In this document: one piece after another, positions 1 to 22,507 of the stretch
Position numbering within the stretch: position 1 is the stretch's first letter
How the letters are laid out: every line of letters starts with the position of its first letter
Assembly (NCBI GenBank): GCA_050259395.1
Contig: JBLNAO010000102.1
Coordinates: forward strand, 1-35,500
Reading direction: 5' to 3'
DNA: 35,500 bases
Source: Chloroflexota bacterium
Lineage (GTDB): Bacteria; Bacteroidota; Bacteroidia; Bacteroidales; VadinHA17
Position numbers and translations under genes: made by a program
Notes under the pieces: model-generated
Told to the model about the DNA's origin: nothing
What the model saw: only the letters and a program-made list of their open reading frames with translations
Databases searched by the model: none

Positions 1-282
1 TCATTTGATCTTTATTCTCATATTGTTGACCTCGATAAGACAACGAAAACTGTGGGTCAAAAGTATTTTTCCGGGAATGTCAGCCTTACACGTGGCATCA
101 CTCTTGGAATTAAGCATATCCTCGAGGCAAAAACAGCGATTCTGCAGTTGTCAGGCAACCGCAAGGCTCCTGTTGCCGCAAGGCTTCTTAGAGAGGAGGT
201 GTCAGCTGATTTCCCGGCATCGGCTATGAAGCTTCATGCAAATTCTTATCTTTTAATGGACAGGGAAGCCGCAGGTGAATAG
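1..282 (+). CDS. nagB: glucosamine-6-phosphate deaminase, C-terminal fragment (5' end lies outside the window)
   Basis: Frame 1 is open from base 1 to the TAG at 280-282. The translated tail ...GITLGIKHILEAKTAILQLSGNRKAPVAARLLREEVSADFPASAMKLHANSYLLMDREAAGE matches the remembered NagB C-terminus (e.g. ...DFPASAL.LH....L.DREAA). Confidence 0.75.
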   Translation, partial: SFDLYSHIVDLDKTTKTVGQKYFSGNVSLTRGITLGIKHILEAKTAILQLSGNRKAPVAARLLREEVSADFPASAMKLHANSYLLMDREAAGE

Positions 283-1381
283 TATAAATGGAAAGAAAAC
301 TGCTGAAGCGCTGGTTTCCGTCCTGAAAAATGCGGACAGCGTTGAGAAATCCGCATTGCTTGGTTTTGACGCATGCATCGACACTCTTGTCAGCGTTGTG
401 AAACAGAGACACGACGACGGATCCGACGAGTATTATTCGAGTCCCGGGGAACTTGGCGGTGTTCTCCTGAAACTGGGAACCAAAAGTTGCGGACTGGAAT
501 TGAAGACTAAAATTTCCAGACCAGGGGGAAACATGGCCATAACTGCGAATGCCCTTGGCAGGCTGGGAGTTAAAGCAGATTGTATCGGTACATTCGGTTA
601 TCCTGATATAAACCCGGTTTACCGTGCAATTTCACCTGCATGCACTCTCCATACAGTTGCTGATACAATTACTGCAACCGCCCTTGAATTTGATGTCTCG
701 AAGATTATCATTTTTGACCCCGGCCCATATAACCATCTTAGCTGGGAAGATATCGTGGAGATTGTCAGTATCGATCAGCTCAAAAAACTGGCCTCCGGGA
801 AAAAATTGATTTCGTTTCTTAACTGGAGCGAAATAGCAAATTCAACATCAATATGGAAACGCTTCCTTGACGATATCTTTTCCGGCTTGCCCCAGGGTGA
901 TAAAAAAATATTCTTCACCGATTTCTCAGATTGTTCGAGAAAGTCGAAGAGCGAGATAACTGAAGCAACAGAAATTCTTCATACATACAGGAAATATTTC
1001 AGGGTTGTTTTAAGCCTTAATGTTAACGAATCATTGCTTGTCGCGAAAGCCCTGGGTGTAAAGGAATCCGGCTCGGATGAACAATTCCTTGAGACTATGC
1101 ATAAGGCATGCAATGTGGATATTATATTGATCCACAGGATAAATGATGCCCTTGCTTATGACGGGTCCCAATGTGTCTCATGCGATACATTCTTCACCGG
1201 TGAGCCAAAAATCCTGACCGGAGGCGGCGATAACTTCAATGCAGGCTTCTGTTACTCGTCTTTCTTTGATCTTGACCTTTCCAGTTCACTGCTTCTGGCA
1301 AATTCGGTTGCAGGCTATTATGTCAGGGAAGGACATAGCCCTGATATTGACGGGCTTGTGAATTTTCTTTCAGAGGTTTAA
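275..1381 (+). CDS. PfkB-family carbohydrate kinase (specificity unknown)
   Basis: A 368-aa ORF starts at the GTG at 275, which overlaps the nagB stop by 8 nt. The first in-frame ATG lies far downstream (the Met in RPGGNMAITANALG). The C-terminal TGGGDNFNAGF resembles the PfkB DTxGAGDxF anion-hole/catalytic motif, and GGNMAITANALGRLG resembles the N-terminal GG motif. Confidence 0.55.
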   Translation: MNSINGKKTAEALVSVLKNADSVEKSALLGFDACIDTLVSVVKQRHDDGSDEYYSSPGELGGVLLKLGTKSCGLELKTKISRPGGNMAITANALGRLGVKADCIGTFGYPDINPVYRAISPACTLHTVADTITATALEFDVSKIIIFDPGPYNHLSWEDIVEIVSIDQLKKLASGKKLISFLNWSEIANSTSIWKRFLDDIFSGLPQGDKKIFFTDFSDCSRKSKSEITEATEILHTYRKYFRVVLSLNVNESLLVAKALGVKESGSDEQFLETMHKACNVDIILIHRINDALAYDGSQCVSCDTFFTGEPKILTGGGDNFNAGFCYSSFFDLDLSSSLLLANSVAGYYVREGHSPDIDGLVNFLSEV

Positions 1382-4300
1382 ATACTTTTACAGGACCATT
1401 ATTCCGGGCTACTACAAGAAGGTCGCCTTTTAATCCTTTTAACAGCAAAAGCCCTCTTGTTTCACCATCGAGGTAACACCCTGTCGACTTCGGAGGAATA
1501 TACCTGAACCTGCCTGTACCGTCACCTGCCAGGAAGTAGCCGTAACCTGCATCATACCTGCCGACTTCGGGCTTGGCATTGTACATGTTTCCACCCATGA
1601 GGATATCGGGATTGCCATCGCCATTGAAGTCGTTTATAATGGCTGCATAGACAGGAGAAAACTGGACTTCATCAGGCAGGATGACCCTGGTGAAATTACC
1701 ATTCCCGTCATTTAAAAAAACGCTTGTCTCGAGAAGATCAGCCTGCAGCCTGATTGAATTCTTAAGCTGGGCAGGAGAGAAGATATCATCTATTTTCTGA
1801 TCCTTGTACATTTCATATTTTGGGTATTTACGCATCAGCTCGGGAATCTGGTTGACAAGATCGTGCTTTAACGGAACAGGGTAGGAGATATCGCCGTCGA
1901 AGGTGCACACAATCTGCTCGACTGCGCCATTCATGTCAAAATCATTGATGTACATGCTCACAGGTTTTTGACCTGTTGCCTTGAATCTTGAGTTAAGCCC
2001 ATGATTCCCCGCCACAAAATCGATGTCACCATCATTATCCAGGTCTCCCGTTGTAATGCAGTTCCACCATCCGGACGTTGTTGAGTCAAATGCAGTTTTC
2101 GTTTCCCTGAAACGACCACCTTCATTTAAAAAGACCTTTAAAGGCATCCAGTCCCCGGCAATAAGAATGTCCTGGTCCTTATCACCGTCAACGTCAGCCC
2201 ATGACATGTCCCTGATCATTCCCGAAGCTGTAAGTCCAGGTGCAATTTCATCAGTGACATTTCTTAAGTTTCCTTTCCCGTCATTCTCGAGTATGTATCC
2301 ATTTACCGGCACTCCATAAGCAAAAGGCTTGAGTCTTATTCCAACAAATAGTTCCTCAGTGCCGTCATTGTCGAAATCTGCGGCACGTACACAGGAAGTA
2401 TTCTCGTATTTCCAGGCGGGGAGGATCTGATCTGATCTTTTAAATCCTCCTTTGCCATCGTTGATGTACAACCGATCATTCAGGGCTGAGGAGCTCTCGG
2501 GAAATTCATTTCCGCCGCTTGCCACATATAGGTCCTTATCATCATCACCATCGGCATCGAAGAACTCGCACCCCGTATCTTCCGATAACTTGTCGGCTTC
2601 AAATGCGGGCACATTCAGTTTCGTAAATCTTCCGGAGCTTTGTTGAATGAACAAACAGCCTGCCTGCCCCCGGGCTCCGCCAATGAATATATCCTGCATG
2701 CCGTCACCGTTCACATCCGCGCTGCACATTCCCGGGCCTTCCGTTGACATCATGTGAAAGATCAGCGGTTCCCTTTCGAAATCATTGAAGTTATCCTCCT
2801 TATGTGTGAATTCCAGTATTTTTTCATTGGATAGATCTTCAAACATTTTGTCTTTCGCATTCGGCGGATTTATGATGGAAAAATCCATCCGGATCCCGTC
2901 TTTCTGTTCGAGTGTCAGTGTCTGGTCGGTTTTTACATCAGTCAAAATGGTCAGGCCACCATCGGGCCATTGAACTATGAGGCTGTCGAGCACTGTAACC
3001 GGGCCCAATCCCAGGTTAGGCCGGTTATCGACAGTGGAAAGATACCCTCTTGTCGGTATCTGCTCGAGATACATTTTTTTCCCTTCATGTATTGCCAGGA
3101 TTTTAGCGCCTAATGCGTCGGTATTCCCTTTTGCGCCTTTCAGAATAAGCTTGAGATAATGATTTTCTGTTCCCTTTGTCTCAGAATTATTCCTGTAAAT
3201 GAACATCGGCATGTTCACGTTATTGACAATAAGATCGAGATCACCGTCGTTGTCAAGGTCAGCGTAAGCAGACCCGTTAGAGAAAGATGGATCTGCAAGT
3301 CCCCATTCATCCGCGACATTTTTGAACCTGTTATTTCCTATGTTTTTGAATGCATAGCTTGGTATCTTAACCGAAGGTATTGCATCGATAAGAGCTTTGT
3401 AATCAATCTTGTTGCCCGACATTATCGACATCACCACATCCCTGTTTGAAAAATACTGGATGTAGTCCTGGTCTGTCAGATCCTTATAGATTCCGTTTGC
3501 CACGAAAATGTCCTTCATTCCATCATTGTCCATATCCATGATCAGTGCGCCCCACGACCAGTCTGTTGCTGCAACGCCCGCAAATCTGCCAATTTCGCTG
3601 AATGTTCCGTCTCCATTGTTAAGCTGAAGAACATTTCTTGTGAACTGGTGGTGGTAACCGTTATCGGCATTTGACTTATAATTGTTCCAGTCATCGAAGG
3701 TTGTTTTTGTCTTCAGCCTGTCATTATGCTCAGGGATCATATCTGTTGCAAATACTTCAGGCCAGATGTCGTTATTGAGGTCAGCCATGTCTCCACCCAT
3801 GGAAGCAGCAGAGATTGAAGGCATCATTGATGTCAGGCACTCACTGAAAGTGCCGTCATGATTGTTTATATAGATGTAATCCCTTTCGAAGAAGTCATTT
3901 GCAACATACAGGTCTGTCCAGCCGTCAAGGTTGATATCGCCGGCAGTTACACCCAGCCCGAAAGCGATCAGGCTACCGTAAATGCCTGCCTCACGGCTGA
4001 CGTCGGTAAACCTGTCTCCGTCATTCCTGAAGAGCTTGTGTCCGCCAGTTGAATCACGTAACTCCCTGAGATTATCTTTCAGGTTGAACGCGCTGATTGC
4101 TTTTGGAAAGTTTTTAAGCACATACAGATCGAGATCGTTGTCCTTATCATAATCGAAGAATACACCCTGTGTCGAGTTTCCATGTTCATCGATACCGTAT
4201 TCGGAAGCTTTGTTCGTGAAAGTCAGGTCGCCGTTGTTAATGTACAGTTCGTTCCTGCTCTGAACACCCCTTATATTTCCTGATTTGCACACGTAAATAT

Positions 4301-4685
4301 CAGTATGTCCATCACCATTTACATCCGCCATGCTTACACCGGTTGACCAGCCTTCACCCTGAATTCCGGCCTTCTCCGATATATCCTCAAACCTGAAATT
4401 CCCTTTATTTAAGTATAATGTATTCTTGCCCATATTCGACGTCATGAAAATATCTGTCATTCCGTCGTTATTGATATCCGCAAGGCCTACGCCACCGCCA
4501 TTGTAGAAATTTCTGAAAGTATAGATGTTGAATTTTGACTCGAGCTGTTTCGAATAATCCAGTGAGTTGTTAAAATCAGCATGAGTCACTGAAGCAGGAA
4601 GAAGAGTGAAAAGTGCGTTATTCTCATTCTTGCACCCCATGAACAGAAGAAAAGTTGTCAGCAAAAACAGTGTGAATTGTCTCAT
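1323..4685 (-). CDS. FG-GAP/VCBS-repeat + UnbV/ASPIC (CRTAC1-like) lipoprotein, paralog B
   Basis: A 1120-aa ORF with an ATG start and a lipoprotein signal (TFLLFMGC). It has two blocks of integrin-type Ca-loop repeats, including DINNDGMTDIF, DVNGDGHTDIY, DYDKDNDLDLY, DINLDGWTDLY, DMDNDGMKDIF, DLDNDGDLDLI, DVNGDGMQDIF, DADGDDDKDLY, DVDGDKDQDIL, DLDNDGDIDFV and DFNGDGNPDIL. A central UnbV/ASPIC-like segment (TRGYLSTVDNRPNLGLG...VQWPDG) separates the two blocks. Confidence 0.8.
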   Translation of the reverse strand: MRQFTLFLLTTFLLFMGCKNENNALFTLLPASVTHADFNNSLDYSKQLESKFNIYTFRNFYNGGGVGLADINNDGMTDIFMTSNMGKNTLYLNKGNFRFEDISEKAGIQGEGWSTGVSMADVNGDGHTDIYVCKSGNIRGVQSRNELYINNGDLTFTNKASEYGIDEHGNSTQGVFFDYDKDNDLDLYVLKNFPKAISAFNLKDNLRELRDSTGGHKLFRNDGDRFTDVSREAGIYGSLIAFGLGVTAGDINLDGWTDLYVANDFFERDYIYINNHDGTFSECLTSMMPSISAASMGGDMADLNNDIWPEVFATDMIPEHNDRLKTKTTFDDWNNYKSNADNGYHHQFTRNVLQLNNGDGTFSEIGRFAGVAATDWSWGALIMDMDNDGMKDIFVANGIYKDLTDQDYIQYFSNRDVVMSIMSGNKIDYKALIDAIPSVKIPSYAFKNIGNNRFKNVADEWGLADPSFSNGSAYADLDNDGDLDLIVNNVNMPMFIYRNNSETKGTENHYLKLILKGAKGNTDALGAKILAIHEGKKMYLEQIPTRGYLSTVDNRPNLGLGPVTVLDSLIVQWPDGGLTILTDVKTDQTLTLEQKDGIRMDFSIINPPNAKDKMFEDLSNEKILEFTHKEDNFNDFEREPLIFHMMSTEGPGMCSADVNGDGMQDIFIGGARGQAGCLFIQQSSGRFTKLNVPAFEADKLSEDTGCEFFDADGDDDKDLYVASGGNEFPESSSALNDRLYINDGKGGFKRSDQILPAWKYENTSCVRAADFDNDGTEELFVGIRLKPFAYGVPVNGYILENDGKGNLRNVTDEIAPGLTASGMIRDMSWADVDGDKDQDILIAGDWMPLKVFLNEGGRFRETKTAFDSTTSGWWNCITTGDLDNDGDIDFVAGNHGLNSRFKATGQKPVSMYINDFDMNGAVEQIVCTFDGDISYPVPLKHDLVNQIPELMRKYPKYEMYKDQKIDDIFSPAQLKNSIRLQADLLETSVFLNDGNGNFTRVILPDEVQFSPVYAAIINDFNGDGNPDILMGGNMYNAKPEVGRYDAGYGYFLAGDGTGRFRYIPPKSTGCYLDGETRGLLLLKGLKGDLLVVARNNGPVKVFKPLKENSQARQYQGYVLP

Positions 4686-4755
4686 TTTGAACTCTTGTTT
4701 CGCAGAGTTGTTAGAATTTATTTCTTATTTAAGCTTTACAATCAACGCTTTACGC

Positions 4756-5370
4756 TCAATGCTCATCTCTCAAACTATCCGGTCTCACCCCGCTCCAGTC
4801 GTTCTTTACGAGCATGTCTGTAAATACAGCCCACACATGTAATTCATCTTCCTTGAAGATCGTAATCCTCCTGTTCCCATCGAGTTTAACATAAGCCATA
4901 CCATGTTCAGGGTGTTTAACTTTCAGGAATCCTTTCCCGTAAAGATCTTCATACCAGGCAACAACATCTTCCTGAAGCTTATCAGAGGAGAGCTCTTTAT
5001 TCCAGGGAGCCCACCCTTTATATACGAATTTAACGGGCATTTCGAAGATCTTTCCATTATTAAACCTCGGGTAAAAATCCATCTGTCCCGGATGATCAAG
5101 TTCTTTCTTCAGATCATACTTTACCGTCGTATTGGTTTCACCCTGCCTTATAATGCCTTTTTTGTTCAGGTTCCAGCACTGCATATAAAACTCCTTCTCC
5201 GGCATTCCGAGATAGATTCCCATGAAAAGTGAGTCAGAGCGCCTCCCTGAAGCCAGTTCCTCCCTGAGCTTTTTGTCGTATTTTGATCTGGGCGAACAGG
5301 ACGATAATACACATCCGGAAAGGATGATTAAGCAAAGTGTTATATTCAGAAATCTGCTCTCAGTACTCAT
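4756..5370 (-). CDS. hypothetical lipoprotein, no family recognised
   Basis: A 204-aa ORF with an ATG start and a signal peptide plus lipobox (LSGCVLSSC). Its start overlaps the upstream gene stop by 11 nt, which implies operon membership. Confidence 0.6.
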   Translation of the reverse strand: MSTESRFLNITLCLIILSGCVLSSCSPRSKYDKKLREELASGRRSDSLFMGIYLGMPEKEFYMQCWNLNKKGIIRQGETNTTVKYDLKKELDHPGQMDFYPRFNNGKIFEMPVKFVYKGWAPWNKELSSDKLQEDVVAWYEDLYGKGFLKVKHPEHGMAYVKLDGNRRITIFKEDELHVWAVFTDMLVKNDWSGVRPDSLRDEH

Positions 5371-8300
5371 AATATTCCATTTTCTTATTATTCAAACCTA
5401 TTGCCAGGATATTTTTCCCTTTAATTTTAAGCAATCCAAAATCCCTGATCTCGCCTTTTGTAAAAAGTCCCGATTCTCCGGGCAGTACTGCATGCCACTT
5501 ATTTCCTCCTTCACCTTTGAGCAGTAACCCGTAAGAAGCATCATTTATCCCGTTTTCAGGCTTTGACCTGTAATTGTTGCCACCGAGTATGATATCACAG
5601 ATTCCATCCCTGTCAAAATCCTCCGAAGCTATTGCATAGACAGGTGATAACTGGGCTTCGGAAGGGAGAGGGGATAATTCGAATTTTCCTGAGCCTTTGT
5701 TGATAAGAACCGAGGTTTCGGAAGTACAGGCAACCAGAATATATGATCTTTTTAAAATATCTGATGTAAAGAGATCATTAATTGATGCATCCTTGTAATC
5801 ATCGAACCTGATGAATTTTTTTCTTAAGGAAGGAATTTGTGCAGTCAGATCATTTTTCATCACAAGAGGATACAATTTCCCATTGTCAGTTGTGCAGATA
5901 ATCTGTTCTATTGAGCCGTTCAGGTCGAAATCATTTACATACATTGTCAAAGGAGAGAGTGTGCCTGCCCTGAACCTGTAATTCAACCCGTCATTACCCA
6001 CAACAAAATCAACCAGTCCGTCATTGTTCAGATCTCTGGCGGCAACCCTGTGCCAAAACCCTTCAGTATCAAGTAATCCTGAACTTTCAGAGACATCGCT
6101 GAAAATTCCTTTTTCATTTGACAGGATCTTTATTGGCATCCATTCACCCACAATCAGCATATCCTGGTCATGATCACTATCGATATCCGCCCAGGCCATG
6201 TCCGTAACCATTCCAATACTACTCAGTGCAACTGCTTTGGTTGAACTCACATCCCTGAAGTTTCCTTTCCCGTCGTTTTCAAGCAGGTGACTGCTTGCAG
6301 GCAGCCCGTAACTGAAAGGGATAAGCCTTGTGCCAACGAAAAGGTCTATGTCACCATCATCGTCAAAGTCACAGGGCTTAATGCAGGAATTACTTTCAAA
6401 TTTTTCTCCGGTGACGCTTTGACTCAATGCAAATTTGCCTTTTCCATCATTAAGGTACAACCTGTCAGTGAGGGCGGAGGACGATGAAGGAAATTCATTG
6501 CCTCCGGTTGCAACGTAAAGATCGGTATCACCATCTCCGTCAGCATCGAAGAATGCACAACCGGTATCTTCGGATATTTTGTCTGTTTCAAACAATGGGA
6601 TGTTCGTTTTATGAAATTTCTCCGCATCATCCTGAACATATAATTCCGAGGGAGAATCTTTGGCATTACAGGCAAAGAGGTCATCAAGCCCATCGCCGTT
6701 GATATCCGCAATTGCAAGCCTGGGACCCTCATTCGAGCTCATCCTGAAAAGGAGCATATCACGTTCGAAATCATTGAAATCATTTTCGATATGCTTAAAT
6801 TCCGGTCCTGACGTTTCAGTGTGCCGGAAAACAGGATGATGGAGTGGTGAGGCTTTCCTGAATTCAATGATATCGATATCACTCTCTGAAATTTTGAGTG
6901 TTTTATTTACCTCCGGATCATGGATTACAGAAAAGAAGCCATCAGGCCACATGATCAGCAGAGAGTCGATCTTTGCAACAGTGCCGAGACCGAAATGAAG
7001 GATGTTTTCCACGCTTGATTGAAATCCCCTGCCCGGACTAAGTTCCTGGTAATTCAGTTTTCCATCATGATAGAGGGTTACTGCAGCCCCTGTTGCCCTT
7101 GTGTTTCCTGACCTGCCCTCAAGTTTCAGCTTCAGATAACTGGTCTTCTGGTTTTTCTCTGATCCGTTTCTGTATATGAAGGGCTCCATATTGACATTGT
7201 TGACTACAAGGTCCAGGTCTCCGTCGTTGTCAAGATCTCCGTAAGCTGCTCCGTTTGACCATGAAGGAGTACCAAGCCCATATTCCACAGCTTTATTCTC
7301 AAATGTAAGATCATGGTTGTTACTTAACACATAATTCGGAATCCTCGTGGAAGGAATCCTGTCAATGATCTTCACAATTGGCTGTTTTTCATTTCGCATG
7401 AGTGTCCTCATAACGTAAGGGTCTGAATATATATCCAGAAAATCGCGGTCCAGAAGATCTTTGTAAATGCCGTTCGCTATAAAGATGTCTTTCCAACCGT
7501 CATTATCGATGTCGAAAATAAGGGCGCCCCAACTCCAGTCTGTTGCGCTGACATTGCTGAACCTGCCTATTTCACTGAATGAATTATTCTGATTATTAAG
7601 CTGCAGTGTATTTCTTGGGAACTGGTGATAATATCCCGATCTGACCTTCATCCGGTACCTGCCCCAATCTTCGTAAACTGCCTTGGTCCTGTACCTCGGA
7701 ATGTCTTCGGGTGTCATTTCAGTGACAAATACTTCGGGCCAGGCATCGTTGTTCAGATCAGCGATATCCGAGCCCATGGCGCCCAGGCTTATTTCCCTCA
7801 TCTGGTCTTCAAGGCATTCCGTGAAAGTCCCGTTTCCTGCATTGATATAAAGGTAATCTCTTTCAAAAAAATCGTTGGCCACATATATATCCATCCAGCC
7901 GTCACGGTTCACATCGGCGATGCTGACTCCAAGTCCGAATCCTATTTTGCTTCCGAAGATTCCCGCTTCTGCAGTAACATCGGTAAAATGGCCAACATCA
8001 TTCCTGAACAGCATGTTTGCGCCAAGTGTATCCCTTATCTCTCTCTGCCCGGGTTTGATATCGAATTCGGTAACAGACTGAAAGGAGTTGTTAAGAAGAT
8101 AGCAGTCAAGGTCACCGTCCCTGTCATAGTCAAAGAAAGCTGCATGATTCGACAAACCGAGAACATCTAATCCGTAGTCATGGGCTTTTTCAGTAAAAGT
8201 AAGATCTCCGTTATTTATGAATAGCTCATTCCGGCGGTCAGGTACGTCCGGCTTTCCTGATTTGCAGACATAGATATCAAGCAGACCGTCGGCATTAACA

Positions 8301-8677
8301 TCAGCAATGCTCACACCTGTTGACCAGGAACCATGGCCTGACACTCCTGCTTTTTCGGTTATGTCCTCGAAAACAAAATCGCCTTTGTTGATATAAAGCC
8401 GGTTTTCAACCATGTTTCCGCAGAAATAAATATCCGGAAGATCGTCTCCGTTGAAGTCGCCGATTCCCACGCCTGCACCATTATAAAAATTCCTGTAGGT
8501 GTATGTATTAAATTCTTCGGTATATTCCAGTCTGTTGAGAAAATCTATTCCGGTGTGATTTTTTTCAATAATAGAGAAAAGAGGTTTGTTATCAGGATTG
8601 TTATTTCCTGATACACAGGAATATAGCACAAGCAAGATTGGCAGAATCGATACTTGCCCGGATCTGAAGTAGCGCAT
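5360..8677 (-). CDS. FG-GAP/VCBS-repeat + UnbV/ASPIC (CRTAC1-like) lipoprotein, paralog A
   Basis: A 1105-aa ORF with an ATG start and a lipobox (LVLYSC). Its architecture is the same as that of 1323-4685: repeats such as DFNGDDLPDIY, DVNADGLLDIY, DYDRDGDLDCY, DVNRDGWMDIY, DIDNDGWKDIF and DLDNDGDLDLV, then the central GRGFQSSVENILHFGLG...MWPDG, then DINGDGLDDLF, DADGDGDTDLY, DFDDDGDIDLF, DIDSDHDQDML, DLNNDGLVDFV and DFDRDGICDII. Confidence 0.8.
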   Translation of the reverse strand: MRYFRSGQVSILPILLVLYSCVSGNNNPDNKPLFSIIEKNHTGIDFLNRLEYTEEFNTYTYRNFYNGAGVGIGDFNGDDLPDIYFCGNMVENRLYINKGDFVFEDITEKAGVSGHGSWSTGVSIADVNADGLLDIYVCKSGKPDVPDRRNELFINNGDLTFTEKAHDYGLDVLGLSNHAAFFDYDRDGDLDCYLLNNSFQSVTEFDIKPGQREIRDTLGANMLFRNDVGHFTDVTAEAGIFGSKIGFGLGVSIADVNRDGWMDIYVANDFFERDYLYINAGNGTFTECLEDQMREISLGAMGSDIADLNNDAWPEVFVTEMTPEDIPRYRTKAVYEDWGRYRMKVRSGYYHQFPRNTLQLNNQNNSFSEIGRFSNVSATDWSWGALIFDIDNDGWKDIFIANGIYKDLLDRDFLDIYSDPYVMRTLMRNEKQPIVKIIDRIPSTRIPNYVLSNNHDLTFENKAVEYGLGTPSWSNGAAYGDLDNDGDLDLVVNNVNMEPFIYRNGSEKNQKTSYLKLKLEGRSGNTRATGAAVTLYHDGKLNYQELSPGRGFQSSVENILHFGLGTVAKIDSLLIMWPDGFFSVIHDPEVNKTLKISESDIDIIEFRKASPLHHPVFRHTETSGPEFKHIENDFNDFERDMLLFRMSSNEGPRLAIADINGDGLDDLFACNAKDSPSELYVQDDAEKFHKTNIPLFETDKISEDTGCAFFDADGDGDTDLYVATGGNEFPSSSSALTDRLYLNDGKGKFALSQSVTGEKFESNSCIKPCDFDDDGDIDLFVGTRLIPFSYGLPASSHLLENDGKGNFRDVSSTKAVALSSIGMVTDMAWADIDSDHDQDMLIVGEWMPIKILSNEKGIFSDVSESSGLLDTEGFWHRVAARDLNNDGLVDFVVGNDGLNYRFRAGTLSPLTMYVNDFDLNGSIEQIICTTDNGKLYPLVMKNDLTAQIPSLRKKFIRFDDYKDASINDLFTSDILKRSYILVACTSETSVLINKGSGKFELSPLPSEAQLSPVYAIASEDFDRDGICDIILGGNNYRSKPENGINDASYGLLLKGEGGNKWHAVLPGESGLFTKGEIRDFGLLKIKGKNILAIGLNNKKMEYYEY

Positions 8678-8703
8678 AGTGACCCGTTCAGATTTTTAAA
8701 ATA

Positions 8704-8745
8704 TAAAGAGAGCAAACAAATATAATGAATTGTTTGCTCTCTTTA
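8704..8745 (-). terminator. 16-bp perfect hairpin between susD and the downstream propeller gene (intra-operon attenuator or terminator)
   Basis: The arms tAAAGAGAGCAAACAA (8704-8719) and TTGTTTGCTCTCTTTa (8730-8745) flank a 10-nt loop. On the minus strand the hairpin is followed by TATTTTAAAAAT. Confidence 0.5.
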
Positions 8746-8767
8746 AAGAGCCTATAGAGCCATTATC

Positions 8768-10411
8768 CTAGTAACCCGGGTTCTGTACCAGGTTTGGATT
8801 GGCAGCAAGCTTGGCTTTTCCTATCGGGAATAATTTGAGATATTCACCAGGGATACCAAGCTGGTCACCAACATTATTGAACGGGATGACCCATTTTTGA
8901 TAGTCGTTCCAGAAACCCCAGCGGATCAGATCCTGCCGCCTGTAATGTTCTGCAAACATTTCCCTGCCCATCTCGTTAAATAGCTCGCCTCCGGCAACCA
9001 CGGGTCCTTCAAGCTGGAAGCTGATCTTTCCATCGAGAGTTGTAAGAGCCGTTAAACCTGCCCTTTGCCTTACCATATTCACAAGTGGTAATGCTTCAGC
9101 TGTTCTTCCGAGCCTGAAGAGGGCTTCAGCCTTCATCAAAAGCACATCGGCATAACGGAAAATCGACATGTCGTTGCTCATATCAGAAGTGCCACCAACC
9201 TGGTATTCCCATTTGCCTATCCGCACACCGGATTGTCTCCATGCCTGCGGACCAAGCTCATTTATCTGTGGTTTACCTGTGCCGATATTTCCGAAATTGA
9301 GAGGTTTCCCATCAGGATCTGTGCCATCAGCGCCATCGTCAATAACAATTTTCCCCCCGCTTGTGAACTGGTAGCCGGCAAGGAAGTTGCCACGATTGAC
9401 TGCAGGTGCTGTTGCTGTACCGACATCCCCTTTTCGCAGATCCTCAGGACTGTATGAATTATAAAATTCTTCCAGTGTGCAGAATCCGTTCCATGGCTGG
9501 GAAGTGAGGTTATAAGTGAACTGGCTGCCATAGTGCAGTGTCTGCATGTTCATGTTAAATCCTGTAAAGAAGATCTGGTCGTATGGAATTGCGAAGATGA
9601 ACTCCTTGGAAGATGAATTATTCACATTGAAATTGGAGAAATAATTACTTTCCAGTGAGTACTTCCCGGAATTTATGACTGAATCACATGCAGAAATTAC
9701 CTTTGCCCATTGTGCCGTTCCCGAATAGACCTGGGAGTTCAGGTATAACTTTGCAAGAAGAGTCTGCGCTGCATAATAGTTCATTCTTCCGTAAGTAGTT
9801 CCATCGACAGCTCTTGAGAGTAAAGGGATCACAGCCTCAAGATCGGCAACAGTGTTGGCGAAGACAGTTGCCCTGGCCACAGTTGCGGGAGCTGAAGAGA
9901 CCCCAATAAAATCGACAACCCAGGGCACGTTCCCATACAGATCGATCAGCTGCCAGTAAAACCAGTTGCGAAGAGCCTTCAACTCAGCAATATATGCTTC
10001 AGCTGTTGTTGCATCAACCTGACCTCCTTCAGACAGGGAAGTGAACTGATATATGAGCCTGTTGGCTGTGTTTACACCGGCATAACAAAAATCCCATGCA
10101 GAACTCATATCATTATCTTCAAATTTCCATGAATGCAGATGGAGCCTTCTCCAGTTTCCGCCATCATCCCAGTCAGATCCTCTTGTAGGTACAACCATCT
10201 CATCTGTAGTCACTTCCTGTAAATTGTAAACAGAACCTGAAGCATAACCACCCAATTGAGTATATGCAGAACCCAAGGCTGAAACAAACTCTGCTTCGGA
10301 CTTGAAGAAATTGGCGGGAGTAACCTCACTGTAGAGTTTCTCATCCAGTTTTGTGCACGACAGGCTGAAAACAGCAAGTGACAGTGCTATCAGAAATATG
10401 GACTTTTTCAT
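8768..10411 (-). CDS. susD: SusD/RagB-family nutrient-binding outer-membrane lipoprotein
   Basis: The gene lies directly downstream of susC. The start chosen is the ATG at 10411, giving MKKSIFLIALSLAVFSLSC (signal peptide plus lipobox). An alternative ATG is at 10435. The fold-typical TPR-like N-half and a C-terminal ...FRYADVLLMKAEA...R.ER..ELFAE..RR.DLIRW-like segment (IFRYADVLLMKAEALFRLGR...FAEHYRRQDLIRWG) are present. Confidence 0.9.
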   Translation of the reverse strand: MKKSIFLIALSLAVFSLSCTKLDEKLYSEVTPANFFKSEAEFVSALGSAYTQLGGYASGSVYNLQEVTTDEMVVPTRGSDWDDGGNWRRLHLHSWKFEDNDMSSAWDFCYAGVNTANRLIYQFTSLSEGGQVDATTAEAYIAELKALRNWFYWQLIDLYGNVPWVVDFIGVSSAPATVARATVFANTVADLEAVIPLLSRAVDGTTYGRMNYYAAQTLLAKLYLNSQVYSGTAQWAKVISACDSVINSGKYSLESNYFSNFNVNNSSSKEFIFAIPYDQIFFTGFNMNMQTLHYGSQFTYNLTSQPWNGFCTLEEFYNSYSPEDLRKGDVGTATAPAVNRGNFLAGYQFTSGGKIVIDDGADGTDPDGKPLNFGNIGTGKPQINELGPQAWRQSGVRIGKWEYQVGGTSDMSNDMSIFRYADVLLMKAEALFRLGRTAEALPLVNMVRQRAGLTALTTLDGKISFQLEGPVVAGGELFNEMGREMFAEHYRRQDLIRWGFWNDYQKWVIPFNNVGDQLGIPGEYLKLFPIGKAKLAANPNLVQNPGY

Positions 10412-10451
10412 ATTGTATCTTTCTTTTTTATTCATTTCCAGGCCCTCCCGA

Positions 10452-13448
10452 TTAAAATATAATATTTGCTCCCAGAGTAAAGGACCTGGTCCTGAACCAG
10501 GTGTTCCTCCTGTCGACTCCCGGTACCAGCGGGCTGTTGAGTGTTCCAAGGTTCTCTGTATCCTGGTACCTCGGGTTAGGATCAACTCCTGTATAACCGG
10601 TAATATAGAACAGATTGTTCCCTGCAAGGTAAAGCCTGATCTTTTTAAAATCGCCGCTTGAAGGCAAACCGAAATTATAACCGATGCTCATGTTGTCGAG
10701 GGCAACGAACGATGCATTTTCAACGTATTTGCTCGATAAAGTTCCTGAAGTCACATTCAGGAGTTTACCCTGTGGATTCCGTATATTGGCAGCGCTTTTA
10801 GGAAGATTGTATGATGTTATATAATTTGGAACTTCATAAAATCCCCTGAATGAATTAATCAGATCGTGGCCGAAGACACCGCGGAAAAACAGGTTAAGGT
10901 CCCATTTCTTATACGTGACTGCATTGCCGAAACCAATCAGGAATTTAGGCAGACCGTTACCTGTAACAACACGGTCTGAAGCGTCTATTTTCCCGTCTTC
11001 ATTCGTATCTTCAAAAACGAATTTCCCGTCAGCATCAATTTCCTTGAATTTATAAGTAAGCAATTGCCCGAGCGGTTGTCCTTCCTCCACAACTGTCAAA
11101 GGAGTCTGGTTTTGTCCGGGAGAACCCATATCGCCCAGTTCCTGCCTTCCGTATTCCAGGTCAGCCCCGTTATAGCTGCCTGAAAGTGAAACAAGTTTGT
11201 TGCTTATATTATATGAAGGTGTGAGAGTTACCATATACGTAAGGTCAGGCTTACCTATCACATACCAGTTCAAAGTAAGTTCCAGTCCACTGCTTTTCAA
11301 TTTGCCAAGATTGAGCCATGCCTGGTTATAAAGGTTCGGCGGCACAGGTACCTGGTATTGCCACAGCAGGTCTGTAGTAGTTTTTGAGTAATAATCAAAT
11401 GAACCTGACAGCTTGGAATCAAATAGCGAGAAATCAAACCCGGCATCGAATTGTCCTGTTTTTTCCCATTTCAGATCGGCATTATTATTACTGACCGGTG
11501 AATAGCCGGGAATGAAACTTCCGTTATAGAAGAAGTTTCCCTGGGGGCCCAGCCTGAGAATGGAAAGATAACTGTTCGATGGCTGGTTGCCGGTAACTCC
11601 GTAATTTATGCGGATTTTCAGGTTGTCGATGGCGCTTGAATTTAGGAGCTCAGAAATATCTGCACCTCCTCCGATAGCAGGAAAAAGACCCCATTTATTC
11701 TGGGTTCCGAATCTTGACGAACCTTCATACCTGGCACTGGCAGTGACAAAATAAGTGCTTGCTATGTTCACGTTCAACCGGCCGAAGAATGCGATGAGCT
11801 TATTATCGTCCTTGTAGCTCGTTATTGTGCCTTTCCCGTTTTTGAAATCAAGCGCTGCACCGAGGTTATTAAATGTAAAGTTGTCTGTCAAGAAATTTCC
11901 TCCCTGGGCATAAAATCCTTCATTTGTGAAATCCTGGTAGGAATAACCTCCCAGGGCGCTTATGTTAAGTGCAGAAGAAATATCACCTGTATAATGAAGT
12001 GTTGATTCAAACAACCTGTTCAGTGAATTGCTTGTGTTCCTGCTCGCCAGACCGTTTCTGTTCATTCCGCCCCAGTAGTCGTGCTTGTTCAGATACTCCC
12101 CAAAGAGGTTTCCAGTGATCTGTGTTGAATAGAACGCGTCAACCGTAAACCCCTTCAGAAGTTCATATGTGCCTTTCATCGAAAGGTTTACTAACCTGTT
12201 TTTCCCTTCCCTGGTGTTTTGCCTTATTATTGAAACAGGATTATAGTAGTCAAACAGCACTTGCTGGAAATATCCATTATATACGTCATACTGCTCGTCG
12301 GTGCTCATTACCGGCGCGGTGGGATTATAAATTGTTGCATACCTGAATGCCTCCGTGAACCCCGGATTATAGTCCTTCTCTGTCGCACCCAGGTTAAGAT
12401 CAAGGGTGAACTTGTCACTCAATGCTTTCTGGGTAAAGTTGATCCTTCCGTTAAGCTGGTTGAATCCTGAAAAGATCTGAACACCCTCCGCAGTCCTGTA
12501 GTTGACTGAAGCCCGATAGGTGGTTTTATCAGTTCCGCCGGAGAGAGAAATATTGTGAGTTTGTGATAAGGCTGTCCTCTCTATCTCCTTGAACCAGTCG
12601 GTGTTGCCCTGAAAGTCAGTTCCAAGTCCTATTTCGGATGACAGGGATCTCCATTCGGTTGCGTCCATGACAGGAACATTCTTTGCGACCATTTCCGATG
12701 TCACATAGCCATTGTACTCAATAGATGATGTTCCAGCCCGTCCTTTCTTTGTCGTTACAAGTATGACGCCGCTTGATCCGCGTGTTCCATAAATGGATGC
12801 AGCTGAACCATCCTTGAGTACGTTTATAGATTCGATATCATTGGGATCCACGTTGTTAAGATCACCGCCAATAACCCCGTCGATAACAATAAGCGGACCG
12901 AGGTTAGCGCCTATAGTGCTCATTCCCCTGAGTCTTATATCAAATCCTGCGTTGGGATCACCTCCGGGTTTGCTTATCGACAATCCGGCAACTTTTCCCT
13001 GGATTAGCTGCACCGGATCGCTGATGCTTCCTTTTACAAACTGATCGGACTTGACCTGCGCGATTGAACTCGTAACTTCCCGTCGCTGCTGGGTGCCATA
13101 CCCGACAACAACCACTTCGTTGAGTGTGCTCAGCTCCGGTACAAGAGTTATATTTATTGTTGTCCTGTCACCAACTGTTACGGTTTGTGATGCGTAGCTG
13201 ATAAACGAGAACACCAGCACAGCATCATTCCCGGGGACATTGATCGAATAACTTCCATCAGAGCCGGTCATTGTTCCCTGCTGTGTACCCTGTACAACAA
13301 TATTAACCCCCGGAAGTGGCCCTTCATCCTGGGATGATACGACCCCTTTGATGGTTTTTCCCTGACCAAAGCCGAAAGATGCCGCAAACCCAAAAATGAG
13401 AAGTAATAAAAAACTTCTCTTCCATTGTGTAGCAGAAATGTTTGACAT
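10452..13448 (-). CDS. susC: SusC/RagA-family TonB-dependent outer-membrane transporter
   Basis: The start chosen is the ATG at 13448 (MSNISATQWKRSFLLLLIFGFAAS...). The protein has a CarboxypepD_reg-like N-domain (IKGVVSSQDEGPLPGVNIVVQG...DGSYSI), a TonB-box/plug (EVVVVGYGTQ) and a long beta-barrel that ends in the terminal aromatic ...ANIIF. There is no N-terminal STN/anti-sigma signalling extension. Confidence 0.92.
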   Translation of the reverse strand: MSNISATQWKRSFLLLLIFGFAASFGFGQGKTIKGVVSSQDEGPLPGVNIVVQGTQQGTMTGSDGSYSINVPGNDAVLVFSFISYASQTVTVGDRTTINITLVPELSTLNEVVVVGYGTQQRREVTSSIAQVKSDQFVKGSISDPVQLIQGKVAGLSISKPGGDPNAGFDIRLRGMSTIGANLGPLIVIDGVIGGDLNNVDPNDIESINVLKDGSAASIYGTRGSSGVILVTTKKGRAGTSSIEYNGYVTSEMVAKNVPVMDATEWRSLSSEIGLGTDFQGNTDWFKEIERTALSQTHNISLSGGTDKTTYRASVNYRTAEGVQIFSGFNQLNGRINFTQKALSDKFTLDLNLGATEKDYNPGFTEAFRYATIYNPTAPVMSTDEQYDVYNGYFQQVLFDYYNPVSIIRQNTREGKNRLVNLSMKGTYELLKGFTVDAFYSTQITGNLFGEYLNKHDYWGGMNRNGLASRNTSNSLNRLFESTLHYTGDISSALNISALGGYSYQDFTNEGFYAQGGNFLTDNFTFNNLGAALDFKNGKGTITSYKDDNKLIAFFGRLNVNIASTYFVTASARYEGSSRFGTQNKWGLFPAIGGGADISELLNSSAIDNLKIRINYGVTGNQPSNSYLSILRLGPQGNFFYNGSFIPGYSPVSNNNADLKWEKTGQFDAGFDFSLFDSKLSGSFDYYSKTTTDLLWQYQVPVPPNLYNQAWLNLGKLKSSGLELTLNWYVIGKPDLTYMVTLTPSYNISNKLVSLSGSYNGADLEYGRQELGDMGSPGQNQTPLTVVEEGQPLGQLLTYKFKEIDADGKFVFEDTNEDGKIDASDRVVTGNGLPKFLIGFGNAVTYKKWDLNLFFRGVFGHDLINSFRGFYEVPNYITSYNLPKSAANIRNPQGKLLNVTSGTLSSKYVENASFVALDNMSIGYNFGLPSSGDFKKIRLYLAGNNLFYITGYTGVDPNPRYQDTENLGTLNSPLVPGVDRRNTWFRTRSFTLGANIIF

Positions 13449-13590
13449 AGTTAAATTGTTTGAATGACTATTCTGTAGTAATCTTAAATTCCTCAACCAA
13501 AAAAGATTAACCAAACGAATTATCACAGGAAAAAATCGAAACCAAGCACCACAAAATCAAGCGAGTATTCAGGATTATCACCTGTTTACA

Positions 13591-13598
13591 CAAAAATA
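13591..13598 (-). promoter_or_regulatory. Bacteroidota -7 box (TAnnTTTG) candidate for susC
   Basis: The minus strand reads TATTTTTG. It lies about 143 nt upstream of the susC ATG in an AT-rich divergent intergenic region. Confidence 0.3.
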
Positions 13599-13836
13599 AT
13601 CAAACTTTTTGGATTAAAAAAGTATTAAAACGTAATTAAAATCCAATGAAAGAACGAAAATGAAGTGCTTTTGTTCATGCCAAATGTGGCTACTTACGTA
13701 TTAAGTTTAAAAACATAGTTTATTATTCAATATTTTTCTACTTTAGCGAAGGTGCGGCGGAGTCATCCGCTACATTATAAAATATTAAAATACATCAACA
13801 AAAACGGATCTTAATAACTCACAGAAATTCTAAGAA

Positions 13837-14718
13837 ATGAGAAAGTTAATTATTGTAAGTTTAATGCTTACGACGACAGTCCTTCTTTCCGGACAGCAAC
13901 AGGGAAATCAGAACAGGCAAAACCAGCAGGGAAATCAACCCGCAGCTGCTCAATCAGCGACCCCTCAGGCTCCGGCAGCACAGCCGCAGCAGAGACCACA
14001 GGGAAACAACGCCAGACCGCAGGATCCCAACCGCATGGTTCCTGGAATGACTGAGATCTTTGAACCCGAAGTTCCTATTGTACAGCCCGGTGCAAAGGAC
14101 AGTGATCCTCCTTCAGATGCAATCGTTCTGTTTAACGGAACCAATGTCGACAAAGAATGGACAGATGCAAGAGGCAATCCCTCGAAATGGATCATCCAGG
14201 ATGGAAACCTGGTATGCGTTAAAGGTTCAGGTGTGATCAAGACAAAAAGAAAATTCGGAAGCGTTCAGCTTCACATCGAATGGAAAAGTCCTTCAGAAGT
14301 TATCGGCAGCGGACAGGGGAGAGGCAACAGCGGCGTTTACCTGCAGGAACTGTATGAAGTACAGGTACTTGACAGCTATGATAACAAGACCTATCGTCAG
14401 GGCCAGGCAGGCAGTCTCTACAAGCAGCATGCACCGCTTGTGAACGTTAGCCGCAAACCTGGAGAATGGCAGTCATATGATATTATCTACACTGCTCCCA
14501 CATTCAATCCCAAAGACACTACAACATATCTCACTGCACCGCGCGTTACAGTATTGCATAATGGTGTGCTTATCCAGAACAATGTAAGCCTCAGAGGTCC
14601 GACACAATATATAGGTATACCTGAATACACAATCAAAGTGCATGGCCCACAGAGCCTTGTTCTGCAGGATCACGGCAACCCTGTTGCTTTTAGAAACATC
14701 TGGATAAGAGAACTTTAA
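13837..14718 (+). CDS. DUF1080 (3-keto-disaccharide hydrolase family, concanavalin-like fold) secreted protein with a Q/N/P-rich N-terminal linker
   Basis: A 293-aa ORF with a signal peptide. The W..DG.L......G.i.T...F.d..L..EWk pattern is present (KWIIQDGNLVCVKGSGVIKTKRKFGSVQLHIEWK), along with NSGVYLQ..YEVQVLDS and the family-typical C-terminus LQDHGNPVAFRNIWIREL. Confidence 0.8.
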   Translation: MRKLIIVSLMLTTTVLLSGQQQGNQNRQNQQGNQPAAAQSATPQAPAAQPQQRPQGNNARPQDPNRMVPGMTEIFEPEVPIVQPGAKDSDPPSDAIVLFNGTNVDKEWTDARGNPSKWIIQDGNLVCVKGSGVIKTKRKFGSVQLHIEWKSPSEVIGSGQGRGNSGVYLQELYEVQVLDSYDNKTYRQGQAGSLYKQHAPLVNVSRKPGEWQSYDIIYTAPTFNPKDTTTYLTAPRVTVLHNGVLIQNNVSLRGPTQYIGIPEYTIKVHGPQSLVLQDHGNPVAFRNIWIREL

Positions 14719-14792
14719 ACCTATATGGTTATTTTCATAAATATTTTGCTTAATTTTATACACTCATACTAAATTTTAAACTACCTGGTAAA

Positions 14793-16286: not shown

Positions 16287-16327
16287 ATCAACAGTCAGCA
16301 TAACTGCTGATATTGTATAATTTTATG

Positions 16328-16368
16328 AAAGTCACAGGTAAACATTTTTACCTGTGACTTTGTTTTTT
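16328..16368 (+). terminator. rho-independent terminator after the Gfo/Idh/MocA gene
   Basis: A 15-bp perfect stem, AAAGTCACAGGTAAA (16328-16342) / TTTACCTGTGACTTT (16347-16361), encloses a 4-nt loop. A T6 run follows at 16363-16368. Confidence 0.75.
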
Positions 16369-16393
16369 ATACAATAATAAAATACAAGTAGTT

Positions 16394-17167
16394 ATGAAGG
16401 CATTGAATATTATATTTTTCGGTACAGTCCTGCTGGGATTGGGTGCATCATGCGGTTCTCAGGGAGGACAGAAAAATGATGAGAATGTAAAAAAGGATAC
16501 TGTGACAACTGCGGTTCTTTCGAAAAATCCCGGCGATGAAGGTTTTGTCGACATTTTCGATGGTAAAACTGCATCAGGATGGAGAGGCTACAACAAAGAC
16601 TCTTTTCCGAAGGGTTGGGAAGTGGTGGATGGAACACTTCATTGTATTGGCTCAGGAACAGGTGAAGCAGGTTCCGGCGGAGACATAATCTATGGTAAGA
16701 AGCTTGGCAACTTCGAGCTGAGGCTCGAGTGGAAGATCTCTGAAGGAGGTAACAGCGGAATCTTCATCCTCGGACAGGAAATACCCGGGCATCCTCTTTG
16801 GCATTCTGCGATGGAAATGCAGGTCCTCGACAATGAAAGACACCCCGATGCCAAACTGGGTAAAAACGGTAACAGGATGGCAGGCTCACTCTATGATATC
16901 CTGCCTGCAAATCCGCAAAACGCCAAACCTGCAGGCGAATGGAACGAAGTGAAGATTCTTGTTTACCAGGGTACAGTGGTTTTCACCCAGAATGGTGAGA
17001 ATGTGGTCGAATTCCATCTTTGGACAGACGAATGGAAAAATCTGGTTCAAAATTCCAAGTTCAAGGATTATGAATGGTTCATGAATCCTGCAAAAGAAGG
17101 ATATATCGGCCTCCAGGACCATGGCAACGATGTGTGGTTCAGAAATATAAAGGTAAAGGAATTATAA
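16394..17167 (+). CDS. DUF1080 (3-keto-disaccharide hydrolase family) lipoprotein
   Basis: A 257-aa ORF with a signal peptide and lipobox (LGLGASC). Family motifs present are GW..y......GW.V.DG.L (SGWRGYNKDSFPKGWEVVDGTLHC), FELRLEWKISEGGNSGIF, MEMQVLDN and the C-terminal LQDHGNDVWFRNIKVKEL. Confidence 0.85.
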   Translation: MKALNIIFFGTVLLGLGASCGSQGGQKNDENVKKDTVTTAVLSKNPGDEGFVDIFDGKTASGWRGYNKDSFPKGWEVVDGTLHCIGSGTGEAGSGGDIIYGKKLGNFELRLEWKISEGGNSGIFILGQEIPGHPLWHSAMEMQVLDNERHPDAKLGKNGNRMAGSLYDILPANPQNAKPAGEWNEVKILVYQGTVVFTQNGENVVEFHLWTDEWKNLVQNSKFKDYEWFMNPAKEGYIGLQDHGNDVWFRNIKVKEL

Positions 17168-21714: not shown

Positions 21715-21746
21715 CTTTGTATATAAATGAAAAAGGAGGAGAAATT

Positions 21747-22499: not shown

Positions 22500-22507
22500 G
22501 ACCATCT

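Follow-up and report, generated by a model that had tools for sequence, protein, structure and literature searches.

How does a SusC/SusD locus work when none of its genes encodes an enzyme for carbohydrate breakdown? The question is raised by five genes on the minus strand (1323–13448) of contig JBLNAO010000102.1, of which the first 35,500 nucleotides were analysed and are called the window here. These genes encode a SusC transporter, its SusD lid, two large propeller lipoproteins (propellers A and B) and a small lipoprotein between the two. SusCD loci without carbohydrate-active enzymes (CAZymes) are usually set aside as unassignable, and many are known to specialists in polysaccharide utilisation loci (PULs). 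The present module is common, its gene order is near-invariant over several Bacteroidota orders, and its neighbourhood offers a concrete context.

We suggest, with about even confidence, that the five genes are not a self-sufficient PUL. Instead, they would provide capture and import at the outer membrane for a larger carbohydrate system, the other half of which would be an oxidative (non-Koshland) cleavage in the periplasm.

The five-gene unit and the divergent operon

As the first-pass annotation had described, the unit consists of susC, susD, propeller A, a lipoprotein gene and propeller B, and the open reading frame (ORF) list with its translations gives five intact, closely packed ORFs. 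The gaps from susC to propeller B are 16, 90, -11 and 70 nt, with 11 nt shared between the end of propeller A and the start of the small lipoprotein gene, and these spacings are compatible with one transcription unit. SusC (10452–13448) is a SusC/RagA-type TonB-dependent transporter. It scores 677 bits against TIGR04056 (cutoff 368), also matches the TIGR04057 signature, and has a signal peptide and, by Pfam, an N-terminal CarbopepD_reg domain, a Plug and a barrel; no STN domain is found in it by Pfam or NCBIfam. Its start is likely the methionine at 13448, where the signal peptide begins, and the listed ORF runs on to a GTG at 13526. SusD (8768–10435) is a SusD/RagB-family lipoprotein with the lipobox ...FSLSC, past the Pfam cutoffs of both SusD_RagB (103 bits) and SusD-like_3 (49 bits). 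Its closest characterised relative is the starch SusD of Bacteroides thetaiotaomicron (PDB 3CK7, 72.9 bits; NF033071, 135 bits). The other three genes encode propeller A (5360–8677, 1105 aa), an orphan lipoprotein of 204 aa (4756–5370) and propeller B (1323–4685, 1120 aa), a paralogue of propeller A with the lipobox FMGC.

None of the five proteins matches a glycoside hydrolase (GH), polysaccharide lyase (PL), carbohydrate esterase (CE), peptidase or regulator family in Pfam or NCBIfam, and the earlier description of a unit free of such enzymes, of a regulator and of STN is borne out. The whole window is also without a GH, PL or CE match in these two databases, and no gene for a hybrid two-component system (HTCS), SusR, extracytoplasmic function (ECF) sigma factor, anti-sigma factor or LacI regulator lies within it. 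Judged as a PUL, the locus has the adjacent susC and susD genes (16 nt apart), no co-localised GH, PL or CE gene and, in the window, no dedicated regulator, be it HTCS, SusR, or ECF/anti-sigma with an STN-bearing SusC. What adjoins the pair are glycoside-cleaving enzymes outside the CAZy families, of the BT2158 and BT2157 types. CAZymes are usual in canonical PULs, but the minimal definition in the cited literature does not demand them. Pseudogenisation, which the annotation had named, for relatives, as an outcome that would weaken its claim, is ruled out in the window, as all five ORFs are full length compared with their homologues.

The further statement that the propellers are the only cargo holds inside 1323–13448 but fails 389 nt past the susC start codon, where an operon for glycoside-cleaving enzymes begins on the opposite strand (13837–17167). 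Its second gene (14793–16286, plus strand) encodes a GFO/IDH/MocA oxidoreductase of 497 aa, which matches the equivalog NF058561 ('BT_2158_fam glycoside 3-dehydrogenase') with 858.7 bits (cutoff 750) and the PDB entries 8TDF (E 8e-208, 694 bits) and 8TDH (E 8e-205). It is nearly identical to crystallised dehydrogenases of the AL3/BT3 type. It carries a twin-arginine motif, SRRTFIG, that is kept in the orthologues. From the equivalog match, the GFO/IDH/MocA fold and the twin-arginine translocation (Tat) signal, it is predicted to be a Tat-exported glycoside 3-dehydrogenase of the BT2158 family. The third gene, DUF1080b (16394–17167, plus strand), encodes a lipoprotein (PF06439, 176 bits) that is roughly as near to BT2157 (PDB 8TDA, E 2.8e-77) as to any PDB entry. 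The active-site and metal residues reported for BT2157 are Glu103, Asn134, Glu164, Gln166, Tyr190, Lys245, Gln273 and His275 (Nasseri et al. preprint, 10.1101/2024.03.25.586180), and 8/8 are identical in the alignment to 8TDA if an offset of +9 between chain and paper numbering is assumed. With its DUF1080 jelly-roll and these eight residues, DUF1080b is a putative BT2157-type 3-keto-alpha-glycoside 1,2-lyase and 3-keto-2-hydroxy-glycal hydratase. The first gene, DUF1080a (13837–14718, plus strand), encodes a secreted protein of the DUF1080/3-keto-disaccharide-hydrolase family (PF06439, 135 bits). It is 30% identical to DUF1080b and belongs to a subfamily other than that of BT2157, uncharacterised, with 4QHZ as closest PDB entry (E 8e-70).

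Enzymes of these types carry out a non-Koshland pathway of oxidation, elimination and hydration (Nasseri et al. preprint). According to the same preprint, C3 is oxidised by the BT2158-type enzyme, which binds its NAD tightly, BT2157 represents the alpha-lyases and a TIM-barrel enzyme of the BT2156 type the beta-lyases, and the oxidative enzymes are strictly exo-acting, requiring partners for polymers. For BT2157, activity on 3-keto-trehalose has been shown, and the periplasm was proposed as the place where Tat-exported BT2158 oxidises the disaccharide (Liu et al. 2021, PMC8121099). The GH, PL and CE criterion of the first-pass annotation missed these enzymes because they sit in no GH, PL or CE family. 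The picture of a PUL without a degradative partner is not supported: the divergent operon holds a BT2158-type dehydrogenase and two DUF1080 proteins, and their linkage to the module recurs in three arrangements among relatives. PUL boundaries drawn on one strand can conceal a degradative partner, and CAZyme-based annotation is blind to the oxidative pathway, which was described only recently.

The divergent operon resembles the BT2156–BT2160 and Alistipes AL1–AL5 operons in having a BT2158-family Tat-exported dehydrogenase together with a BT2157-type DUF1080 lipoprotein. However, it is not a complete operon of the BT2156–BT2160 type. The BT2156-type TIM-barrel beta-lyase, the BT2159-type second oxidoreductase and the SusR-like BT2160 are all absent from the window, and a second DUF1080 protein from another subfamily is present. 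Among the relatives' neighbour clusters that were scanned against Pfam (clusters c16 and c19 left out) there is no TIM-barrel family either. Unlike both known operons, that of the window is paired with a SusCD–propeller module; the Nasseri et al. preprint makes no mention of PUL, SusC or TonB.

Two details of the divergent operon can be added. In DUF1080a, the signal peptide is followed by about 50 residues of Q/P/N-rich low-complexity linker (QQQGNQNRQNQQGNQPAAAQSATPQAPAAQPQQRPQGNNARPQDPN); such a linker is unusual in a periplasmic enzyme and may serve as a tether or spacer. On the plus strand at 16328–16361, between the dehydrogenase stop at 16286 and the DUF1080b start at 16394, there is a perfect 15-bp hairpin with a T-run after it, which could be a terminator or attenuator that divides the operon.

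Relatives of the module and their control regions

A scan of about 185,000 species genomes, one per species, gave at least 598 stretches, at least 579 of them encoding confirmed relatives. The neighbourhood survey covers the best 80 of these at least 579 loci, in species-level genomes with 10-kb flanks; the window proteins were mapped onto them and the neighbouring ORFs clustered. Among the 51 loci whose sequence reaches 9 kb or more upstream of the small lipoprotein gene, 50 show SusC, SusD, propeller, small lipoprotein and propeller in this order, so the arrangement is not due to chance. These loci belong to metagenome-assembled genomes and isolates with the labels Bacteroidales, Rikenellaceae, Cyclobacteriaceae, Cytophagales, Roseivirgaceae, Flammeovirgaceae, Marinoscillum, Chryseolinea, Maribacter, Flavobacteriaceae, Chitinophagaceae, Saprospiraceae and Phaeodactylibacter. 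Widespread as it is, the locus type seems to be uncharacterised: a search of openly licensed PMC papers and bioRxiv gave no description of it, although absence from this literature is not proof.

The commonest neighbours, counted in genomes, are DUF1080 (24), BT2158-like GFO (23), NagB-like (13), LacI (12), ketohexokinase-like (Khk-like, 11) and GluP/FucP-type transporters of the major facilitator superfamily (MFS, 8), the window itself being included in the DUF1080, GFO and Khk counts. Hydrolases are occasional neighbours: GH130 at five loci (nearest to the BT3780 beta-1,2-mannosidase model), GH65 and GH127 at three each, GH32 and an MGH1-like GH at two each. Among the 34 loci with SusC present and adequate flanks, 17 have GFO (counted as BT2158-like) and/or DUF1080 within 10 kb, and 23 are accompanied by one or more of GFO, DUF1080, LacI, Khk, NagB and MFS. 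One Pedobacter genome, which encodes ten DUF1080 proteins, gives a rough estimate of a few percent for chance GFO/DUF1080 adjacency within 20 kb, and the observed 17/34 lies far above this rough expectation.

The linkage takes three forms. In the divergent form, that of the window and of ten further loci with ~80%-identical orthologues, the genes for DUF1080, glycoside 3-dehydrogenase and DUF1080 point away from susC, which may be preceded by a LacI gene. In the co-directional form (nine loci), genes for an MFS transporter, DUF1080, a second type of GFO (GFO') and, in part of them, NagB and Khk lead into susC. GFO' is a 37–39% identical paralogue that has a Tat signal and scores 437 bits on the BT2158 model, under the cutoff. 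In the third form (three loci), a convergent set stands downstream of the module. Window-type genomes also show a Khk–NagB pair on the opposite strand, then a GFO' fragment. That the linkage persists through rearrangement argues for selection. The GFO/DUF1080 association is limited to a Bacteroidales-like group, in which propeller A is at least 58% identical to that of the window.

Other sets of genes accompany the module elsewhere. In the Cytophagales/Cyclobacteriaceae loci L030 and L040 a co-directional GH32 gene follows it, and Khk follows it as well in two Cytophagales loci. GH127 and MGH1-like GH genes follow it in L038, L075 and L080, the latter two with an AraC regulator upstream, and a PAP2/FGGY-kinase/MIP-channel set does so in L070, L077 and L078. 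Lineages outside the Bacteroidales-like group may have re-purposed one import module for different small glycosides. L033, L042 and L058 have at least two SusCD–propeller modules in tandem, and the propeller genes there can reach about nine in 25 kb, which indicates paralogous expansion of the module.

The lack of a regulator noted in the first-pass annotation is true for this window. Among the relatives, a LacI-family gene adjoins susC in 12 loci and an operator stands at susC. This operator is a palindrome with the core AAACGTTT, seen in the forms GCAAACGTTTGC, TCAAACGTTTGC and GAAAACGTTTGA. The exact core occurs 27 times in 1.57 Mb of loci; 15 of the occurrences are intergenic, and 11–12 of those 15 are directly upstream of a module susC. 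If up to 2 mismatches are allowed, 13 of 54 susC upstream regions contain the palindrome, while 0.84 are expected in shuffles. It lies ~160–350 nt upstream of susC in L008, L011, L014, L018, L037, L045, L053, L059, L062, L063 and L071. From these sequences, the usual regulator of the module appears to be a LacI-type sugar repressor, which in many relatives would act at the susC promoter operator and control the module.

In the window, a -7 box and operator scan was made of the control region between susC and the divergent operon (13449–13836). At 13598 the minus strand carries a Bacteroidetes-type -7 box, TATTTTTG, which precedes the susC ATG by 150 nt. The intact operator of the relatives, nnAAACGTTTnn, is absent from this region, as from the whole window; the nearest match, TCAAACTTTTTG at 13601–13612, has 4 mismatches and is a degenerate remnant. 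The window would then have lost or relocated its LacI regulator. Scans for sigma-70 promoters and terminators were uninformative for Bacteroidota, with terminators at chance level.

Proposed mechanism, propellers and alternatives

In the mechanism that we propose, SusC would be the TonB-dependent barrel and SusD its lid, while the two double-propeller lipoproteins and the small lipoprotein would be accessory outer-membrane lipoproteins, forming a 'utilisome'-like complex with SusCD. Exposed at the surface, the propellers would take a soluble glycoside or an oligo- or polysaccharide on their Ca2+-stabilised faces and pass it to SusCD. The imported chain would be shortened in the periplasm from its non-reducing end without hydrolases: the Tat-exported glycoside 3-dehydrogenase would oxidise C3, and the DUF1080 lyase/hydratases would eliminate and then hydrate. 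Both GFO types carry twin-arginine signals and so are expected to act in the compartment into which SusC delivers. In the cytoplasm, the Khk-like kinase and the NagB-like enzyme would then take over the freed monosaccharides for phosphorylation and isomerisation. The strict exo-action of the oxidative enzymes and their need for partners on polymers fit such a pairing with an uptake machine.

Utilisomes, i.e., complexes of SusCD with accessory lipoproteins, are described in published titles and abstracts. The layout of the module, with propeller A right after susD, three accessory lipoproteins and linkage of this trio to SusCD in 50/51 loci, matches what would be expected of one, and a complex of several lipoproteins assembled around SusCD is probable. 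As in canonical PULs and utilisomes (starch Sus; the levan and dextran systems of B. thetaiotaomicron), the susC/susD pair is followed by further genes for outer-membrane lipoproteins, SusC has an N-terminal CarbopepD_reg-type domain and the neighbours are sugar-related. In contrast to canonical PULs, the five-gene operon has no GH, PL or CE, and its accessory lipoproteins are CRTAC1-like double propellers of 1100 aa and an orphan of ~200 aa instead of surface glycan-binding proteins of immunoglobulin-like or carbohydrate-binding-module type and a surface glycanase. The regulator of the relatives, missing from the window, is LacI-type and not HTCS, SusR or ECF/anti-sigma, and in distant relatives the accessory proteins are more conserved than SusC and SusD.

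The recurrent neighbours (MFS, LacI, NagB-like, Khk, GH130, GH65, GH127, GH32 and MGH1-like GH) are all sugar-related. We commit ourselves to a carbohydrate as the substrate and to nothing beyond that. A weak preference goes to alpha-linked gluco-oligosaccharides, glucosides or heterosides, hinted at by the BT2157-type alpha-lyase, by the starch SusD as nearest relative of SusD and by the GH65 neighbours in three loci. Fructan or sucrose was considered, from the Khk family and the GH32 gene after the module in two Cytophagales loci, as was hexosamine, from the NagB-like gene; both have too little support. The NagB-like gene suggests a step on an amino- or keto-sugar phosphate.

If the coupling is true, the oxidative pathway extends from the scavenging of disaccharides to SusCD-fed substrates, and part of the population of 'CAZyme-less PULs' is not CAZyme-less in function. 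It would also open a tractable bacterial route to the function of the ASPIC/CRTAC1 fold.

This fold is that of the propellers. Both proteins carry a lipoprotein signal, and each has by Pfam 10–11 FG-GAP_3 stretches (249–268 bits) and one UnbV_ASPIC domain (57–72 bits), all past cutoff, with 10–11 Ca-type loops Dx[DN]x[DN]G per protein (11 in propeller A). They are 52% identical to each other (blastp). The AlphaFold2 (AF2) model of propeller A has a mean predicted local distance difference test score (pLDDT) of 74 and a predicted template modelling score (pTM) of 0.53, so that the single domains can be trusted but not their placement relative to each other. The model consists of an N-terminal FG-GAP propeller, a beta-sandwich at ~513–597 and a C-terminal FG-GAP propeller at ~650–1105. 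In a Foldseek search against PDB, the single good match is murine CRTAC1 (9ETN; E 5e-24, template modelling (TM) score 0.69 on the target, 18% identity), and the remaining matches are generic multi-propeller scaffolds with TM 0.1–0.3. Those to DDB1 and GH74 (0.2–0.3 for GH74) are of this generic kind and are not taken as evidence. The relationship to CRTAC1 is also seen in sequence (phmmer E 2e-11, profile E 1.5e-17), and among all PDB sequences a 40-sequence propeller profile matches nothing except CRTAC1 and integrin alpha chains.

As in vertebrate CRTAC1, the N-terminal ~600 residues contain an FG-GAP propeller followed by an ASPIC/UnbV beta-sandwich, with Ca-type Dx[DN]xDG loops. Unlike CRTAC1, whose core is a single propeller-TTR unit, the bacterial proteins add a second FG-GAP propeller at the C-terminus, carry a lipoprotein signal and are encoded in SusCD operons. 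To our knowledge, the biochemical function of CRTAC1 is not established and no catalytic activity of it is known, so the likeness transfers no mechanism to the propellers. Homologues of propeller A number at least 8000 (90% clustering), and no name among them goes beyond 'VCBS repeat-containing protein' or 'enediyne biosynthesis protein E4'. In a representative library at 50% identity, 5698 clusters match at E<=1e-30, the top 150 all of ~1100 aa. Three paralogous propeller lineages stay separate as orthologue groups. Besides A and B there is a third, with ~45% identity to B, that most surveyed loci have and this window lacks.

The small lipoprotein is present in 71 surveyed genomes, always between propellers A and B, and has 805 homologues, none of them named. 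It has no sequence match in Pfam, NCBIfam or PDB. Its AF2 model (pLDDT 76) has an alpha+beta fold without a significant match in PDB by Foldseek (best E 2.8e-3, TM 0.26–0.35); weak matches to UTRA/chorismate-lyase-like folds that bind small molecules are not trusted.

Several observations weigh against the capture-and-import reading. GFO and DUF1080 within 10 kb are missing from half of the well-flanked loci, and there is no GFO/DUF1080 at any sampled Cytophagales, Flavobacteriales or Saprospiraceae locus. In the co-directional form, GFO' and susC are ~170–420 nt apart, and a single transcript is not assured. In the loci set, the operator is not found upstream of GFO/DUF1080 operons and is confined to susC promoters, which does not support co-regulation with the dehydrogenase operon. 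The GH130, GH65, GH127 and GH32 neighbours point to different substrates. The N-terminus of the small lipoprotein, C-SPRSKYDKK, is basic, and the protein may face the periplasm. Finally, the propellers are more conserved between orders than SusC and SusD. The median identities over 16 distant loci are 53% for propeller B, 51% for propeller A, 45% for SusC, 44% for SusD and 41% for the small lipoprotein. This is atypical of surface glycan binders and seems to fit an enzyme at least as well, although constraints from a multi-protein complex could be the source instead.

The first-pass annotation had left open whether the propellers are enzymes or Ca-dependent binders, and both alternatives stand. 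The enzyme alternative starts from the beta-propeller folds of several polysaccharide lyase families (e.g., PL11, PL22, PL24/25 and PL42), which are in part Ca-dependent and attack glycans at the cell surface or outside it. The double propellers would then be the missing surface depolymerases, a new family of Ca2+-dependent beta-propeller lyases or hydrolases that reduce a polymer to fragments SusCD can take up, with the periplasmic oxidative enzymes finishing the work and no Koshland glycosidase taking part. We consider this possible but doubtful. The propellers are indeed the best-conserved parts of the module in distant relatives (51–53% against 44–45% for SusC/SusD), their three paralogous lineages have been kept as separate orthologue groups, and the alignment shows many invariant polar residues outside the Ca loops, such as NDFFERDY, WSWG and HxENDFNDFER. 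Against it, no characterised catalytic family was found by Pfam, NCBIfam, phmmer and the 40-sequence profile against PDB, or AF2 with Foldseek. CRTAC1, without known catalytic activity, is the sole good fold match, no enzyme exceeds TM 0.3 in the Foldseek search of propeller A against PDB, and no catalytic constellation could be identified. With the known beta-propeller lyases the propellers have the fold class alone in common, no sequence, profile or top-ranking fold similarity being detected, and their conservation may equally reflect contacts between proteins inside a complex. The annotation's claim would also have been weakened by a confident match of the propellers to a characterised CAZy or peptidase family, and only CRTAC1 and integrin alpha chains were matched. 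That the propellers are a new Ca2+-dependent family of surface glycan-cleaving proteins which, with the 3-dehydrogenase and the DUF1080 lyases, completes a degradation free of Koshland glycosidases is unlikely in our estimate; if true, it would give the ASPIC/CRTAC1 fold its first biochemical function.

Another explanation dispenses with the coupling. The module would be a self-contained glycan uptake system whose adjacency to sugar genes is specific to lineages, and its substrate would be degraded by CAZymes encoded elsewhere. The half of the well-flanked loci without nearby GFO/DUF1080, which include all those outside the Bacteroidales-like group, speak for it, as do the GH130, GH65, GH127, GH32 or MGH1-like genes that other loci have instead, the restriction of the LacI operator to the susC promoter, and the multi-copy nature of DUF1080 and GFO genes in Bacteroidota. 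We nevertheless find it quite unlikely, as each of the three arrangements holds GFO and DUF1080 within a few kb of the module, the MFS–DUF1080–GFO'(–NagB–Khk) set is directly upstream and co-directional in nine genomes, and the 17/34 frequency is far above the rough chance expectation.

Import of something other than a carbohydrate (a peptide, protein, metal chelate or secondary metabolite), with the propellers as Ca-dependent adhesin-like receptors, is very improbable: a SusCD system that imports a ubiquitin homologue (according to a title and abstract) and a two-gene 'PUL' affecting vancomycin susceptibility do exist, FG-GAP/CRTAC1/integrin relatives are protein-binding modules, and one database names homologues 'enediyne biosynthesis protein E4', but the recurrent neighbour families are sugar-related, with no peptidase, siderophore or biosynthetic genes recurring beside the module in the neighbour clusters of the surveyed loci, the regulator appears to be a LacI-type sugar repressor, and the closest characterised relative of SusD binds starch.

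Other genes of the window

On the far side of the module, the window begins with the 3' end of a NagB-like gene (glucosamine-6-phosphate deaminase family; 1–282, plus strand), cut by the window edge. The fragment is 64% identical to residues 148–237 of the NagB-like protein of locus L003, which itself scores 197 bits against TIGR00502, under the cutoff of 236.9. Next comes a kinase of the PfkB superfamily (275–1381, plus strand). It falls into prokaryotic ketohexokinase (Khk; PF25270, 151.5 bits, cutoff 35), a Pfam family anchored on haloarchaeal fructose 1-kinases. The NagB-like stop codon TAG (280–282) overlaps the GTG start of Khk by 8 nt, which suggests translational coupling. Khk and propeller B are convergent, and their 3' ends overlap by 59 nt.

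Beyond the divergent operon, between DUF1080b and a peptidase gene, lies an HD-domain gene (17211–17777) that is syntenic in L019, L060 and L076 with 80–88% identity. The peptidase (17803–21591, minus strand) is a gingipain-like C25 cysteine peptidase of 1262 aa with a propeptide and a type IX secretion system C-terminal sorting domain. It is followed at 21684–27196 by a possible periplasmic redox group, comprising a metallo-beta-lactamase fold protein, a fusion of a Tat-signal aldo/keto reductase with a 4Fe-4S dicluster domain, a DUF6599 protein, an unassigned ORF of 332 aa and a NapC/NirT-type multihaem cytochrome. Cytochromes have been speculated to re-oxidise BT2158-type enzymes (Nasseri et al. 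preprint).

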